From assembly GCF_020171945.1 (NCBI RefSeq), contig NZ_JAIVAP010000003.1, positions 119,412-143,411 of the forward strand: a stretch of 24,000 bases of DNA. The letters are read 5' to 3'. The DNA is from Bacillus infantis (GTDB lineage Bacteria; Bacillota; Bacilli; Bacillales; Cytobacillaceae). The notes under the pieces are model-generated. The model had not been told where the DNA came from. It ran no database searches and was given only the letters and a program-made list of their open reading frames with translations. A program made the translations under genes and the position numbers. This document shows, one piece after another, positions 1 through 10,722 of the stretch (the first letter of the stretch is position 1; every line of letters begins with the position of its first letter).

Positions 1-741
1 CTTGCAGAAGACTTCAACCATATGGCCGCAAAGCTCAGGTCCTCCAATGAAGAAATTGAAAGGCTTGAAAACCGGCGGAGAACATTCATTGCAGATGTTT
101 CCCACGAAATGCGGACGCCGCTTACGACAATCAGCGGCGTGGCAGAAGGCATGAAGAATAATTTAATACCTGATCAGGAAAAGCAAAAGGGCATGGATCT
201 GATTGACCGGGAAGCGAGAAGGCTTATCAGGCTGGTTAATGAAAATCTCGACTATGAGAAAATCCGCTCAAACCAGATCAAGCTGGACATTGGCAATATC
301 CAGGTCCTGGATCTGTTTGAAGTAGTAAAGGAGCAGCTTGAGTTCCAGGCCGAAGAAAAAGGGATAGAAATCGTGCTTGAGGCCGATGAAGAGCTATTTG
401 TAAAAGCAGATTATGACCGCATCATCCAAATCATCATCAACATTGTTAAGAACAGCATCCAATTTACCGATGGGGGAACTGTGTGGCTGAGAGGGCGGAA
501 AGGTAATGAAGAAACAGTCATTGAGATCCAAGACACTGGGATCGGCATCGACCCGGGAGAAATTGAATCGATCTGGCACCGCTTCTATAAAGCAGATCTG
601 TCAAGGACCAGCAGCACGTTCGGTGAATTCGGGATCGGCCTTTCCATCGTCAAACAGCTCGTACAGCTTCATAATGGGGAAATTGAGGTAGAAAGTGAAA
701 GAAACCAAGGGACGCTCTTTAGGATCAGATTTCCGGGATGA
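1..741 (+). CDS. Two-component sensor histidine kinase, C-terminal part (5' end outside window)
   Basis: The frame is open from base 1 (LAEDFNHMAAKL, end of a HAMP-like linker). H-box FIADVSHEMRTPLT; HATPase N/G boxes (NIVKNSIQFT, DTGIGID, GIGLSIVKQL). Stop at 739-741. Confidence 0.9.
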   Translation, partial: LAEDFNHMAAKLRSSNEEIERLENRRRTFIADVSHEMRTPLTTISGVAEGMKNNLIPDQEKQKGMDLIDREARRLIRLVNENLDYEKIRSNQIKLDIGNIQVLDLFEVVKEQLEFQAEEKGIEIVLEADEELFVKADYDRIIQIIINIVKNSIQFTDGGTVWLRGRKGNEETVIEIQDTGIGIDPGEIESIWHRFYKADLSRTSSTFGEFGIGLSIVKQLVQLHNGEIEVESERNQGTLFRIRFPG

Positions 742-802
742 AGGGTGTAACGCCGTTTCCGCGAAGGATGATAGGGGGCAAGACTTCTGATTCTGCTGCT
801 GG

Positions 803-1319
803 GTCATGCAACCGGGAGTGCCGCTGGGGTACAGGAACAGCCGAAGGGAGGCTAAGTCATGCATGCGAGAGTCAGTCTGGGATACATGGGCAGGCGAGAT
901 TAGGCACAGTCATGTATGGGAGAGCCTGTCCGGGATACATGGCCAGTTGAATAAAAGCCAAGTCATGTATACGGGAGCCCTTCTGGGATACATGACCAGT
1001 TGAAAAAAAAGGCCAGTCATGTATGTGAGAGCCCGGTTGGGATACATGACCAGAAGAAAAAAGCCCAAGTCATGTATGTGAGAGCCCTTCTGGGATACAT
1101 GACCAGTTGAAAAAAAGGCCAGTCATGTATGTGAGAGCCCGGTTGGGATACATGACCAGACGAAAAAAAGCCCAGTCATGTATGCGAAAGCCCGTCTGGG
1201 ATACATGACCAGATGAAAAAAAGTCCAGTCATGTATGCGAGAGCCCGTCTGGGATACATCGCCAGATGAAAAAAAGCCAAGTCATGCATCCAAGAAACCA
1301 GATGTGCTCACGTGACCAG
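803..1319. repeat. Tandem array of about 10 units of a 53-bp repeat, each unit a 9-bp-stem inverted repeat plus an A-tract
   Basis: GTCATG anchors at 803, 856, 909, 962, 1016, 1069, 1122, 1175, 1228 and 1281. Central units are near identical (GTCATGTATGYGAGAGCCCNNYTGGGATACATGACCAGNNGAAAAAAAGSCCA); edge units are degenerate. The period is not a multiple of 3. Confidence 0.9.
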
Positions 1320-1361
1320 CCTTTTCGCAGTAGTGACATAATACCCCAATAATCTCCAAAC

Positions 1362-1396
1362 AAAAAACCTTTCCCGCACTGGGAAAGGTTTTTCTC
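1362..1396. terminator. Bidirectional intrinsic terminator between the kinase/repeat region and the convergent CNNM gene
   Basis: AAAACCTTTCCC-gcact-GGGAAAGGTTTT, with an A-run on the 5' side and a T-run on the 3' side, immediately after the stop of the minus-strand gene at 1398. Confidence 0.8.
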
Positions 1397-1397
1397 T

Positions 1398-2762
1398 CTA
1401 AGAAAGGACCTCCGACTTAGCCAGCATAATCTGCTGCTCATTCTGCTGTTCGACCGGGACTGCCTTTTCCTGGAGTTTCTTTACTTCAATATACTTGATA
1501 TGATGATCCTCCATTTCTAGGATGGTAAAGTCATAGGAATCAAAATGAATCGTATCGCCCTGCTTCGCTTCATAGTTCTCTGTCAGGATCCATCCGCCCA
1601 TTGTATCCACATCTTCATCATTGATCTCAAGGCCGAGGAGGTCATTCACTTCACTCACAAGAACTTTGGAATCAAATATGAAATGCCCTTCATCCATTTT
1701 CCGGACCATTGGGACCTCATCATTGTCAAATTCGTCGCGGATATCACCGACGATTTCTTCTATTATGTCTTCGACTGTCACAAGGCCTGAAGTCCCCCCG
1801 TATTCATCCATCAGTATGGCCATATGGATCCGGTCTTTTTGCATTTTCACCAGCAGGTCATGGATCGGAATCGTATCAATGACCCGGATGATCGGCCGGG
1901 TATACGCTTCAAGCGTCTTGGAGGTTATCTCCCGGTCCTTGATGAAGTCAGTAATGATTTCCTTTATGTTGACCATTCCGATAATATGGTCTTTATCTCC
2001 ATCGATAATCGGATACCTTGTGAACTTTTCGTCATGGACGAGCTGCAGGAAGGTTTCGAGCGTATCATCCTTGGCAAGCGAAACGATTTCTGTACGCGGG
2101 ACCATGATTTCCTTGGCAATCCTGTTATCAAACTCGAATATCTTGTTTACATACTTAAACTCAGACTGGTTGATTTCACCACTTTTATAGCTTTCGGATA
2201 AAATGATGCGAAGCTCCTCTTCGGAATGTGCCAGGTCATGCTCGGAAGCCGGCTTTAACCCAAAGAAGCCAGTGATTAAGCGTGCAGAGCCATTCAGCGC
2301 CCAGATGAAAGGGTACATGATTTTATAGAAACCGATCAGCGGACGGGAAAATGCAAGCGTAATCCATTCAGCTTTTTGAATAGCGAGAGTCTTTGGCGCA
2401 AGTTCTCCGATCACAACGTGGAGGAACGTGATAAGGCCAAAAGCGATAGAAAAAGAAAGTATATGTGATACAGATTCCGGGATGCTGAGGTTTGTCAGCA
2501 CCGGCCTTAAAATATGCTCGACTGTTGGTTCTCCGAGCCACCCTATTCCCAGCGCGGTCACGGTAATGCCAAGCTGGCAGGCGGACAGGTAGCCATCCAG
2601 GTTCGTAATCACTTTCTTTGCAGCAAGTGCAGAGCTGCTGCCTTCTTCTATAAGCTGGTCAATCCTTGAGCTTCTCACCCTGATGATTGCAAATTCCGAA
2701 GCGACAAAAAATGCCGTAAAAGCAATTAAAATGGCTATAATAACCAAGTTTAATATGTCCAA
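1398..2762 (-). CDS. CNNM/HlyC-CorC family membrane protein (DUF21 TM region, CBS pair, CorC_HlyC C-terminal domain), putative divalent-cation (Mg2+) efflux protein
   Basis: 454-aa ORF with TTG start. Hydrophobic N-terminus (LVIIAILIAFTAFFVASEFA, LSACQLGITVTALGIGWLGEP), a central CBS-like region and a C-terminal CorC-like region. From memory it resembles the B. subtilis YhdP(MpfA)/YhdT/YugS paralog group. Confidence 0.9.
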   Translation of the reverse strand: MDILNLVIIAILIAFTAFFVASEFAIIRVRSSRIDQLIEEGSSSALAAKKVITNLDGYLSACQLGITVTALGIGWLGEPTVEHILRPVLTNLSIPESVSHILSFSIAFGLITFLHVVIGELAPKTLAIQKAEWITLAFSRPLIGFYKIMYPFIWALNGSARLITGFFGLKPASEHDLAHSEEELRIILSESYKSGEINQSEFKYVNKIFEFDNRIAKEIMVPRTEIVSLAKDDTLETFLQLVHDEKFTRYPIIDGDKDHIIGMVNIKEIITDFIKDREITSKTLEAYTRPIIRVIDTIPIHDLLVKMQKDRIHMAILMDEYGGTSGLVTVEDIIEEIVGDIRDEFDNDEVPMVRKMDEGHFIFDSKVLVSEVNDLLGLEINDEDVDTMGGWILTENYEAKQGDTIHFDSYDFTILEMEDHHIKYIEVKKLQEKAVPVEQQNEQQIMLAKSEVLS

Positions 2763-8597: not shown

Positions 8598-10694
8598 ATG
8601 AGCAATACAAGAGAAGGCAGAAGTAAACAAAATCGTATTTATAGACTAAAACGTATTTTACAGATCGTCCTTTTATTTTTTTCTACATCGATCCTCGGCT
8701 TCCTTAGTTTCTTTTATTTTCAGGGCAAGGACGCGGATATCAGCAATCTGGAGGATGGGATGTCGCTGCCAACAGTCATCTACGATTACAGCGGGGAAGA
8801 GGCAAGCAAAATATCAGCAAGCAAAAATGAAGGCCTCCGTGCCGACCAGATGCCTGACAGCCTGAAAAATGCCGTAGTCGCAATCGAAGATAAAAGATTT
8901 TATGAGCACAGCGGCATCGACTACAAAGGGATTATGAGAGCGCTGTTCACTAATATCAAGGCTGGCGGTGTAGTCGAAGGCGGGAGCACCATTACACAGC
9001 AGCTGACGAAGAATGCACTGCTCACCCATGAAAAAACATACAAGCGGAAAATGGAAGAGTTTTTCCTGGCAAGGGAAATTGATAAGAAATATTCAAAGGA
9101 AGAAATCCTTCAGATGTATTTGAATCAGATTTATTTTGGAGAAGGGGCATGGGGCGTCAAAAATGCAGCCCTTAAATACTTTGGCAAAGATGCCGAAGAT
9201 CTGACCATAAGCGAGTCGGCCATTCTGGCGGGAATCATCAAGGCCCCTTCGGCCCTGAATCCAATCGGCCATCCCGAAGAGGCGGTAGAACGGAGGGATA
9301 CTGTCCTGCTGCAAATGAAGGAGCAGAATTATATTACTGCCAGTGAATATGAACAAGCCAAGGCAGAGCCGCTTGCTCTCAACGACAAGGGAGGCGATCC
9401 ATTGAAAGGGAAGTTTCCTTATTATGTCGATCATGTCCTGGATGAAGCAATCGAATTATATGGGCTGACACAGGACGAATTATTGACAGAGGGATACAGG
9501 ATCTATACTGAGCTTGATCCTGATATGCAGGCAGCAGCAGAAGAAATCTACCAAAGGGACGATCTTTTCCCGCAAGGAAAAGAGGACCAGATCGTTCAGA
9601 GCGGTGCTGTACTGGTGGATCCTGAATCAGGCGGTGTCCGGGCTTTGGTCGGCGGACGCGGCGAGCATGTCTTCAGGGGCTTTAACCGGGCCACCCAGCT
9701 GAAGCGCCAGCCAGGCTCAGCAATGAAGCCTTTGGCTGCCTATGCACCTGCCCTGGAAGAGGGCTGGAAGGCAACAGATGAGGTAAAAGATGAGAAAATG
9801 AGCTTTGGCGGCTATGAACCAGGCAACTACAATGGCCAGTACCGCGGGCAGGTGCCAATGTATGAGGCCGTCAAAGATTCGCTTAATCTTCCAGCGGTTT
9901 GGCTACTTAATGAAATCGGGATTGAAGCGGGTATTGAAGCATCCAAGCGGTTTGGAATTCCTCTGGAGGAGAGCGACAGAGACCTGGGGATTGCTCTTGG
10001 AGGATTGTCATCAGGTGTGTCACCGCTGGAAATGGCCGGCGCTTATGCGGCATTTGCCAATGATGGTGTAAGGGAAGAGGCCCATGCAATCATAAAGATT
10101 GAAGACGCTCAAGGAAATGTAGTGGCTGAACGGAAAGATAAGGCGGTGCAGGCAGTCTCTAAAGAATCTGCAGAACAGATGACAACCATGCTATTAGGGG
10201 TTGTCGAGCAGGGAACCGGGAAGGCCGCAGGCATACCTGGAAGAGAAACTGCAGGGAAGACTGGTTCGACTCAGGTGCCGATTGAAGGAATAGACGGCGT
10301 AAAGGATCAATGGTTCACCGGCTATACGCCTCAGCTTGCCGGTGCTGTATGGGTCGGTTATGACCATACAGATGAAAACCACTATTTAACAACAACAAGC
10401 AGTGAAGGCGCCGCCCCAATCTTCCGTGAGCTGATGGAGGCTGCCCTTGAAGGGAAAGATGCTGAATCATTCAATGTTCCGCATATATCTTATTATATTG
10501 AACAAAAAGAGAAAGAAGAAAGATGGAAGAGGGCCAGAGAATGGGAGGAGAACTTAAGGAAGGAAGCCGAGAAGTGGCAGGAAAAGCTGCGCGAAGAAAA
10601 AGGGAAATGGGAAGACCGCTTAAAGGGCAGGGATAAGGAAAAAGAGAAAGAGAAAGAGAAAGAAAAAAAGAAAGACAAAAAGCATGAAGAATAA
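8598..10694 (+). CDS. Class A penicillin-binding protein (glycosyltransferase GT51 + transpeptidase) with a K/E/W-rich C-terminal tail
   Basis: N-terminal TM anchor. GT51 motifs AIEDKRFYEHSGID, GGSTITQQL and RKMEE. Transpeptidase motifs SAMKP (SxxK) and KTGST. Low-complexity tail EKEKEKEKEKKKDKKHEE. Confidence 0.95.
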   Translation: MSNTREGRSKQNRIYRLKRILQIVLLFFSTSILGFLSFFYFQGKDADISNLEDGMSLPTVIYDYSGEEASKISASKNEGLRADQMPDSLKNAVVAIEDKRFYEHSGIDYKGIMRALFTNIKAGGVVEGGSTITQQLTKNALLTHEKTYKRKMEEFFLAREIDKKYSKEEILQMYLNQIYFGEGAWGVKNAALKYFGKDAEDLTISESAILAGIIKAPSALNPIGHPEEAVERRDTVLLQMKEQNYITASEYEQAKAEPLALNDKGGDPLKGKFPYYVDHVLDEAIELYGLTQDELLTEGYRIYTELDPDMQAAAEEIYQRDDLFPQGKEDQIVQSGAVLVDPESGGVRALVGGRGEHVFRGFNRATQLKRQPGSAMKPLAAYAPALEEGWKATDEVKDEKMSFGGYEPGNYNGQYRGQVPMYEAVKDSLNLPAVWLLNEIGIEAGIEASKRFGIPLEESDRDLGIALGGLSSGVSPLEMAGAYAAFANDGVREEAHAIIKIEDAQGNVVAERKDKAVQAVSKESAEQMTTMLLGVVEQGTGKAAGIPGRETAGKTGSTQVPIEGIDGVKDQWFTGYTPQLAGAVWVGYDHTDENHYLTTTSSEGAAPIFRELMEAALEGKDAESFNVPHISYYIEQKEKEERWKRAREWEENLRKEAEKWQEKLREEKGKWEDRLKGRDKEKEKEKEKEKKKDKKHEE

Positions 10695-10722
10695 AAAAAG
10701 AGCCGGAGGGCTCTTTTTTTTG
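10694..10722. terminator. Bidirectional intrinsic terminator
   Basis: AAAAAAAGAGCC-ggag-GGCTCTTTTTTTT, directly after the PBP stop and directly after the stop of the minus-strand mini-ORF. Confidence 0.8.

Follow-up and report, generated by a model that had tools for sequence, protein, structure and literature searches.

The published roles of REP and BIME elements are those of gene-end hairpins, terminators, mRNA stabilisers and sites for gyrase or IHF (PMC2817692; bioRxiv 10.64898/2026.03.23.713779). Within REP clusters the REPs alternate in orientation (PMC2817692), and the REP palindrome carries a GTAG or CGTC tag at one end (PMC3733652). REPs have been related to RAYT transposases, gyrase, IHF and RNA-decay enzymes (PMC2817692, PMC3733652). 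An E. coli REP cluster is a partial terminator and stabiliser of the upstream mRNA, and REPs located between convergent genes are associated with higher expression of both genes (bioRxiv 10.64898/2026.03.23.713779). The pneumococcal BOX element is organised as boxA-boxB(n)-boxC, in which the middle unit of ~45 bp is repeated in tandem in variable number (PMC3049150).

Tandem repetition of hairpins or short units is also found in RNAs such as the Csr/Rsm-type sponges and the type III antitoxin ToxI, which are like the arrays reported here in this respect. The mycobacterial MIRU-VNTR loci of Supply et al. are reportedly minisatellites of 46-101 bp that occur at multiple intergenic loci with strain-variable copy number; MIRUs are said to be oriented with the operon and to contain small overlapping ORFs, without a defining hairpin. 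The plasmid centromere sopC of F is composed of 12 x 43 bp, and centromeres of this type consist of tandem units of ~40-50 bp with an inverted repeat and a period near whole helical turns.

In this study, we analysed a stretch of 24,000 nucleotides from Bacillus infantis (contig NZ_JAIVAP010000003.1), called the window below, in which a tandem array lies between a histidine-kinase gene and a CNNM transporter gene. The array probably belongs to a family of interspersed intergenic hairpin minisatellites that is REP/BIME/BOX-like, is restricted to B. infantis and has the hairpin arms as its constrained part. The family is apparently undescribed. No description of these arrays was found in the B. 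infantis genome paper or in a literature search. Rfam at gathering threshold returned nothing on the arrays of the window and of eight array loci, which bears out the statement in the preliminary description that no named repeat family was recognised; in a permissive Rfam scan of positions 700-1450 the best sub-threshold match reached 22.1 bits against a threshold of 50.

The array between the kinase and CNNM genes

The features of the locus are collected in Table 1. In a unit of the array, the two arms of a 9-bp inverted repeat, GTCATGTAT and ATACATGAC, enclose a 17-nt loop and are followed by a linker of 18 nt that is A-rich. GTCATG anchors were found at 803, 856, 909, 962, 1016, 1069, 1122, 1175, 1228 and 1281, as previously given, and their spacings (53,53,53,54,53,53,53,53,53) were re-found exactly. 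No internal gap is needed to align the ten units, which have a mean column identity of 81%, and units 4-9 are nearly identical. The inverted repeat had been ascribed to every unit; it is present, but it is perfect in only five of the ten (copies of GTCATGTAT-N17-ATACATGAC at 962, 1016, 1069, 1122 and 1175). Likewise, the A6-A8 tract, also ascribed to every unit, is limited to units 4-9. When up to three mismatches are allowed, GTCATGTAT-N17-ATACATGAC has 8 matches in the window, compared with 0.01 expected from shuffles. The alignment shows u1, u2 and u10 to be clearly decayed and the central units near-identical, as had been noticed before. In the core units, five of six have perfect arms, and an alternation in pairs gives a 106-bp super-period. 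TRF reports the region 855-1286 with period 53 (8.1 copies, 82% matches, score 519) and also calls the 106-bp super-period, which fits slightly better (85% matches).

Table 1. Positions of the array, its parts and the flanking features in the window
Feature	Position	Strand	Description
Histidine-kinase gene, 3' part (HisKA + HATPase_c)	1..741	+	Pfam E=1.7e-17 and 4e-26; last base of the stop codon at 741
Intergenic spacer, unique, from kinase stop to array	742..801		~68% identical to the other B. infantis lineage vs ~92% for the coding flanks
Whole array	802..1332	no strand	Ten head-to-tail 53-bp units, one of them 54 bp; family type D
Edge units u1-u3	802..960		Increasing decay; arms with 1 to >3 mismatches; without clean A-tract
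Core units u4-u9	961..1279		GTCATGTAT + 17-nt loop (g[c/t]gagagccc..ctggg) + ATACATGAC + cagNNg + A6-8 + gccca
Terminal unit u10	1280..1332		Decayed
Two-way intrinsic terminator	1362..1396		13-bp stem, 5-nt loop; A-run upstream, T-run downstream; adjoins CNNM stop codon
CNNM/CBS/CorC_HlyC ('hemolysin family') transporter gene	1398..2762	-	Pfam; convergent with kinase gene

Pfam, the ORF list and the RNA folds agree with the flanking genes and the bidirectional terminator that had been claimed for this locus. The terminator hairpin folds at -18.0 kcal/mol on the plus strand (z -6.3) and at -21.7 kcal/mol on the minus strand (z -4.8), and it is conserved in the other B. infantis lineage. The kinase orthologue of other strains has 466-472 aa with a HAMP-HisKA-HATPase organisation and an adjacent response regulator. 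The CNNM protein of the window matches the B. infantis protein P0001 at 100% identity and a second B. infantis cluster at 98%. Between the convergent kinase and CNNM genes, the sole canonical terminator is found beyond the array, and this layout is conserved in the other lineage. Because in both lineages the only canonical terminator lies past the array, the array is presumably co-transcribed with the kinase gene, and it is plausible that at this locus the kinase transcript runs through the array as a 3' untranslated region. The array itself is noncoding, as stated earlier: its period cannot be divided by 3, the ORFs that cross it are all short, and with a unit number that varies from strain to strain these ORFs cannot be conserved.

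The same locus was compared in four other B. infantis assemblies that carry the 98%-identical CNNM protein. In each of them an array of this kind separates the same pair of gene ends. Three of the assemblies contain 14, 11 and 13 units, compared with 10 in the window, and in the fourth the contig ends inside the array; the intergenic lengths are 873, 715 and 821 bp vs 657 bp in the window, with differences of about one or two 53-bp units. The flanks are ~90% identical overall between the window and these four assemblies (coding sequence 92%, unique intergenic sequence 65-68%). An edge unit like u1 is recognisable in the other lineage (L126, L127), and a decayed edge homologous to u10 (ctgtgctcacgtgaccagcc) is present in L125-L128. 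The interior is reshuffled, with 2-unit blocks in the window and 3-unit blocks in the other lineage, and the decayed edges are common to both. The block super-periods of 106 bp and 158 bp, the shared decayed edges and the variation among 10, 11, 13 and 14 units all support the earlier proposal of in-situ amplification. A Cytobacillus is the nearest species in which the CNNM gene has an orthologue (81% identity of the protein); there, the other neighbour gene is different and there is no array.

Tandem repeats can expand neutrally, and two contigs (L128 and L211) break inside arrays, indicating that arrays are hard for short-read assemblers. The array might accordingly be taken for a strain-specific neutral expansion or an assembly artefact without wider significance. 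We regard this as extremely improbable, since four further, independent assemblies from a ~10%-diverged lineage have the same array at this site, and since seven loci have common arms and geometry with all else different. The strain-specific neutral expansion, named in the preliminary description as the case that would count against it, is contradicted by the four diverged assemblies and by the arms and geometry that the seven loci have in common. Because 10, 11, 13 and 14 units occur at one site across assemblies, the array is a true VNTR. The array between the kinase and CNNM genes is a genuine and old VNTR minisatellite, not an assembly artefact.

A dispersed set of arrays with common arms

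One genome per species was scanned with the arm pattern, with 15-19 nt allowed between the arms and the linker left unconstrained. At least 120 matches were listed, which were mostly unrelated palindromes, and the number of array loci per genome is a lower bound. Among the matches listed were six further array loci in two B. infantis strains, each with period 53 and 3.3-14 copies, and no related array outside B. infantis (one genome per species). At least seven array loci are known in B. infantis; the arrays have 3-21 units and are intergenic at all seven loci. No solitary unit was found in ~100 kb of non-redundant B. infantis DNA with a profile made from all units.

The arms are GTCATGYAT and ATRCATGAC in all five sequence types described below, and in a longer form they read GTCATGYAT(CCC)...(GGG)ATRCATGAC. 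The loop has 17 nt in every array consensus and the linker 18 nt, with a few edge units off by 1-2 nt. Since any distance of 15-19 nt between the arms was accepted in the scan and no condition was set on the linker, this 17/18/53 geometry is an observation and not a matter of ascertainment. Between arrays, the consensus identity is 0.90 for the arms, compared with 0.38 for the loop and 0.36 for the linker; within arrays, every part agrees with the array consensus at 72-99%. There are five unrelated sequence types of loop and linker, A to E, of which E was found last and D is the type of the window. The linkers of all types are purine-rich on one strand (AGAGAGAAAAA, AAGAGAAGAGA, GGAGAAAAAAGGGAA, GAUGAAAAAAAG). 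In type B the polarity of the linker is flipped relative to the loop. Every array is strictly head-to-tail, that is, the polarity of loop and linker is constant among its units.

As a separate observation, the purine-rich strand of the array is the strand of positive GC skew in the flanks at six of seven loci (p ~0.06, with GC skew as a crude proxy), which may be taken as a lead.

The neighbours of the arrays are unrelated housekeeping genes, and no neighbour is common to the loci. They include the genes for MurQ and a NERD protein; for tRNA-Arg, a metallophosphoesterase and an aminotransferase; and, elsewhere, for DUF305 and MFS proteins, for MatE and a nucleotidyl transferase, for EamA and NAD kinase, and for a 2-hydroxyacid dehydrogenase and a homoserine dehydrogenase. 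In BLAST comparisons between loci, L016, L087 and L041 show no similarity past the borders of their arrays; L042 and L094 alone have ~170 bp in common on one side of the array. Other sources of sequence gave no sign of the elements. A three-arm pattern had 76 matches in metagenomes, all of them unrelated CATG-rich simple repeats. In viral contigs there were 4 chance matches with a loose pattern and 0 with a strict one. BLASTN found no match for types A, B, D and E in plasmids, nor for type D in phages.

Turnover of the array sequence was seen upstream of murQ. There, strain 142 and one other assembly carry type A arrays of 14 and ~10 units, and at the same site two further assemblies carry type E arrays of 15 and 21 units. 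The type E unit reads CTCATGTAT cccgcactccYcccggg ATACATGAC tgctccttttccatccca. The array segments (668 vs 959 bp) are non-alignable between types A and E, within flanks of 89-93% identity. A lineage that is ~10% diverged likewise carries the array of the tRNA-Arg locus (9.2 vs 5.7 copies). Every B. infantis lineage examined carries an array at the three tested loci; neither an empty site nor a target-site duplication was seen at these loci in B. infantis, and because the array is present in every lineage no insertion boundary can be defined. The corresponding murQ locus of Neobacillus has no array. Arrays gain and lose blocks of 1-5 units while their edge units are old and decayed, and they persist at the same sites across lineages that are ~10% apart in flanking DNA. 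Large arrays are retained in all lineages, a hint of some host function not explained by the reading favoured below.

Methylation in B. infantis has been reported at the motifs CACN5CTNG and GGAGT (PMC5001198). A link of the arrays to methylation was rejected, as these two motifs do not overlap the arms.

Pairing, curvature and transcription

In an alignment of 53 distinct units, 80% of the cells of a 12-pair stem are paired, compared with 23-41% when the partner is slid. Changes on both sides of a pair were found between types at 7-29 (U-A 32, C-G 11), 11-25 (C-G 25, G-C 15) and 12-24 (A-U 16, C-G 6). Judged from sequence comparison, these paired changes favour intrastrand pairing; they amount to only ~2-3 independent events, and template switching in DNA palindromes can yield compensatory changes without selection. 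The outer nine stem pairs are conserved in sequence, beyond mere covariation. When single units are folded as RNA, two registers are obtained, in which the arms pair either across the loop or across the equally long linker, so that the structure is not fixed. An excess of G.U over A.C mismatches was considered as a marker of the RNA strand and was rejected: mismatches of both kinds are few and mixed across loci, non-transition mismatches are equally common, and there is no clear bias on either strand. At the type D locus of the window, the stem variants on the plus strand are 4 G.U vs 2 A.C distinct variants.

The array had previously been read as intrinsically curved DNA with phased A-tracts. 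We estimated curvature with a wedge model, as the ratio of end-to-end to contour length compared with shuffles, using provisional dinucleotide parameters. In the window array the ratio was 0.73, with 0.86 +/- 0.08 in shuffles; the 14-unit allele gave 0.07 (shuffles 0.78 +/- 0.13), and a type A array, which is without A-tracts, gave 0.43 (shuffles 0.73 +/- 0.13). A type B array, which has A6 tracts, gave 0.89, the same value as its shuffles, and is predicted to be straight. In synthetic arrays of the consensus unit, the strongest curvature was predicted at period 53. Any unit repeated at about five helical turns sums its small bends. The part of the earlier reading that stands is a predicted bend at the window locus with its peak at period 53; as a family feature it fails on types A and E, from which the A-tract is absent, and on the predicted straightness of type B. 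Curvature is a plausible property of the window locus in this model, not a conserved feature of the family, and A-tracts do not define the family.

The same data bear on an architectural role at the DNA level, in which the arms would be double-stranded sites for a nucleoid-associated protein, a topoisomerase or another DNA-binding protein. The orientation of such sites would alternate every 26-27 bp and repeat every 53 bp, a distance of about five helical turns; in-phase curvature would aid binding, and where the sites lie between convergent genes they would serve to manage supercoiling, in the way proposed for BIME-2 and gyrase. This would account for the strict conservation of the period and both spacings with free sequence between the arms, for conservation of the arm sequence itself beyond complementarity, for the irrelevance of orientation relative to transcription, for the location of three of seven loci between convergent genes and for the persistence of arrays in all lineages. 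The wedge ratios of the window, 14-unit and type A arrays, which are below those of shuffles, and the peak at 53 are in line with it. On the other hand, arm centres 26 bp apart face opposite sides of the helix, an unusual arrangement for a dimeric site; covariation in place of conservation at the inner stem positions points to intrastrand pairing; no bend is predicted for the type B array, and the wedge parameters are provisional; and no candidate protein is known. Taken together, we consider an architectural role rather unlikely.

Because the array of the window is presumably co-transcribed with the kinase gene, with no plus-strand terminator before 1362-1396, its plus strand had been proposed to form a ~620-nt 3' untranslated region of hairpins and A-rich linkers that resembles a sponge RNA, which would titrate an RNA-binding protein. 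Candidates would be Hfq, which binds A/G-rich repeats in Bacillus, or CsrA through GGA. The purine-rich strand of the linkers in all types and the slight plus-strand surplus of G.U variants at the type D locus would fit. The other loci speak against it. The orientation of arrays relative to flanking genes is inconsistent, and the sense strand is purine-rich at two loci but pyrimidine-rich at two (L016 and L041). The arrays of L016 and L042 lie just beyond the predicted terminator of the upstream tRNA or gene, and that of L094 adjoins a candidate terminator (hairpin and T-run). No loop or linker motif is common to the five types, and GGA is absent from type A. Moreover, the G.U and A.C counts are small, mixed by locus and equalled by non-transition mismatches, the RNA folds are ambiguous between two hairpin registers, and Rfam gives no match. 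A sponge of this kind is very unlikely in our view, and the preliminary reading was not upheld in this point.

The minus strand offers another possibility, that the units are tandem back-up intrinsic terminators or insulators that shield the kinase gene from antisense read-through out of the CNNM gene. A minus-strand unit folds as CUGGUCAUGUAU...AUACAUGACUGG followed by GC and U7 at -17.4 kcal/mol, and variability within the unit is highest in the 6 nt that follow the T-run, as would be expected past a terminator. A terminator scan scored 1-2 type B units as terminator-like, and it called no type D unit. The stem of a minus-strand unit is predicted to have 12 bp rich in A/U and G.U pairs and a 17-nt loop, with U7 located 2 nt past the extended stem; counted from the 9-bp stem, the distance to the U-tract is 5 nt, and it falls to 2 nt when two G.U pairs extend the stem. 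A stem base rich in A/U and G.U pairs and a 17-nt loop are a poor geometry for a terminator. In addition, a strong canonical terminator already stands between the CNNM gene and the array, type A has no T-run and type E a weak one, and the orientation relative to genes varies. The window units are predicted to be at best weak minus-strand terminators, and it is quite improbable that termination explains the arrays.

Proposed origin and relation to known repeat classes

The favoured reading, that of a B. infantis family of hairpin minisatellites with constrained arms, may be put in the following way. The units would multiply by slipped-strand events or unequal recombination. The arms would be constrained most likely as a hairpin in single-stranded DNA or RNA, the base of which would be read sequence-specifically by a trans-acting factor. 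Eighteen invariant arm bases and a fixed 17/18-nt geometry, in a fast-changing remainder and across ~10% divergence, would imply such a reader of the arms. The putative factor might be a spreader of the elements, comparable to the RAYT transposases for REPs, or a host binding protein; it is solely the dispersed distribution that suggests mobility of the elements. At the window locus, where the array would be inside the 3' untranslated region of the kinase, the effect, if any, would most likely be REP-like: a stack of hairpins could delay degradation of the kinase mRNA in the 3'-to-5' direction, and a minus-strand unit, which is a hairpin followed by UGGGC and U7, could damp CNNM read-through into the kinase gene. 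The array is probably not a dedicated sponge RNA.

A bolder reading is that the arrays are cis sites of a dedicated, putative B. infantis protein that reads the GTCATGYAT hairpin or inverted repeat. Such a protein could belong to a first REP/RAYT-like system in Bacillaceae (HUH-type, acting on single-stranded DNA) that builds regular 53-bp arrays, or it could be a chromosome-organising or insulating protein that needs many helically phased sites. A dedicated protein would explain why arms, spacing and large copy numbers are kept at all loci and in all lineages while the sequence between the arms turns over, at one locus even to another sequence type. We put this forward as speculation that is more likely wrong than right by a wide margin.

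If the favoured reading is true, B. infantis has its own class of interspersed hairpin repeats, a multi-locus, species-wide family that is invisible from the window alone and goes beyond the view of a single locus. The loci may serve as VNTR typing markers for this emerging opportunist, with 10-14 units at the kinase-CNNM locus and 10-21 at the murQ locus, and the arrays are break points of short-read assemblies. The family would also provide a tractable Gram-positive system for the long-standing question of the function of REP-like elements.

Several other classes of tandem repeat were considered and rejected. CRISPR, in which unique spacers lie between identical repeats and a leader and cas genes are usual, was rejected because the 18-nt linkers are themselves repeated (72-94% identity within the array) and no cas domain was found in ten window ORFs scanned. 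A plasmid-type centromere, like sopC or parC, which would have partition genes beside it and be located on a plasmid or close to the origin, was rejected because the arrays are chromosomal and located at many loci, with no par genes beside any of them and no plasmid match. A type III toxin-antitoxin system of the ToxI kind, in which the repeats directly precede an endoribonuclease toxin gene in the same orientation, was rejected because there is no adjacent toxin gene and the neighbours are unrelated and in either orientation. A coding repeat was rejected on neighbours and anatomy.

Compared with mycobacterial MIRUs, the B. infantis arrays have variable orientation and no conserved ORF. Compared with Csr/Rsm sponges, they are without a conserved single-stranded protein-binding motif and without a dedicated promoter and terminator unit. 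The BOX element is like the arrays in that both are interspersed, intergenic, strongly structured and slow-moving elements of a Firmicute that are confined to one species and its closest relatives (PMC3049150). However, the arrays have no terminal modules like boxA or boxC, their edges being decayed units, and the two are not similar in sequence; a BOX unit does not change from locus to locus, but the arrays have only their arms in common.

The REP/BIME elements of E. coli, Pseudomonas, Xanthomonas and Stenotrophomonas are like the arrays in being extragenic, species-specific, imperfect palindromes of ~35 nt that form hairpins, in forming regularly spaced clusters at gene 3' ends or between convergent genes with strain-variable numbers, and in having sequence conservation concentrated at the base of the stem. 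The extragenic imperfect palindrome of 20-40 bp that characterises REPs has its counterpart in the 35-nt arm-loop-arm segment, which is intergenic at all seven loci. In contrast to REPs, neither GTAG nor CGTC is found in the arms of any of the five types, the stem is A/T-rich with a large loop of 9-17 nt, the host belongs to the Bacillaceae, and no RAYT gene, which for REPs would be an IS200/IS605-like gene with the repeats on its flanks, is known for the arrays. The units are head-to-tail, not alternating as in BIMEs. REPs reach copy numbers of >100 per genome including solitary copies; the arrays are known from at least seven loci, with no solitary copies in ~100 kb. Their loops and linkers differ completely between arrays. 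By analogy, the arrays of B. infantis appear to resemble REP/BIME and BOX elements more than a protein-sponge RNA, as a member of neither class.

Array alleles and flanks in B. infantis

The site upstream of murQ carries either a type A or a type E array of the 53-bp-period hairpin family, depending on the B. infantis strain (assembly locus L206 versus L207 and L208). The flanks are 89-93% identical among these assemblies, whereas the array-bearing segment between them cannot be aligned. In the NERD-domain gene upstream, the length of the 3' end varies with the array allele (300, 324 and 318 aa).

The type B arrays at L042 and L094, which belong to different strains, have about 170 bp of right-hand flank in common (85-90% identity). 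The left flanks are different, as are the more distant genes. The alternatives are an array at a rearrangement breakpoint and a joint move of array and flank. A stand-alone tRNA-Arg(TCT) gene with a promoter-like site and a terminator of its own has a type A array just 3' of it (L016 and L210). Genes for tRNA are among the classic integration sites, but only this one case was seen. The L016 locus also contains a T-box leader, which is an ordinary feature.

Positions of arrays, segments and neighbouring features
Feature	Location	Score	Remark
Type B arrays with common right flank	L042 1650-1825; L094 4060-4206		
murQ-upstream array-bearing segment	L206 3112-3779 versus L207 2824-3782 and L208		
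tRNA-Arg(TCT) site next to type A array	L016 5594-5670; L210 4190-4266		
T-box leader	L016 7714-7968	102 bits, above gathering score	3' of aminotransferase gene, which adjoins the array
AAAGAG/CTCTTT repeat	window 10638-10701; L212 2025-2108; L213 2050-2106		

Orientation, termination and assembly

The purine-rich array strand is the strand of positive GC skew at six of the seven B. infantis loci compared (the window, L016, L041, L042, L087, L094 and L095), with skew taken from 8-24 kb of flanking sequence as a crude proxy (p ~0.06). This match hints that array orientation is biased relative to replication.

In the window, folding gives the hairpin at 1362-1396, between the array and the CNNM gene, a stem of 13 bp, and each of the two strands has a T-run. 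This hairpin is absent from the list produced by the consensus terminator scan, so the lack of scan matches within the array is weak evidence. Two public contigs stop within arrays of the family, one at the window's array locus in another assembly (L128, end 5856) and a second one (L211, end 4609); short-read B. infantis assemblies are thus broken by these repeats.

Other repeats

The gene for a class A penicillin-binding protein (window 8598-10694) carries an AAAGAG/CTCTTT hexanucleotide repeat at its 3' end. Since the copy number of the repeat differs among three strains (6.5 in the window, 14 in L212 and 9.5 in L213), it is an in-frame coding VNTR, and the protein has a Lys/Glu-rich tail whose length varies.

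A separate family of nested palindromes, GTCATGTAT-GACATGC-NNN-GCATGTC-AATACATGAC, occurs in gut Lachnospiraceae MAGs. Among the matches listed from an arm-pattern genome scan, it has several copies per genome and was seen at L001, L003, L005, L008, L013 and many other Lachnospiraceae/Clostridia loci. These palindromes share their outer arms with the Bacillus arrays by chance and are otherwise unrelated to them.
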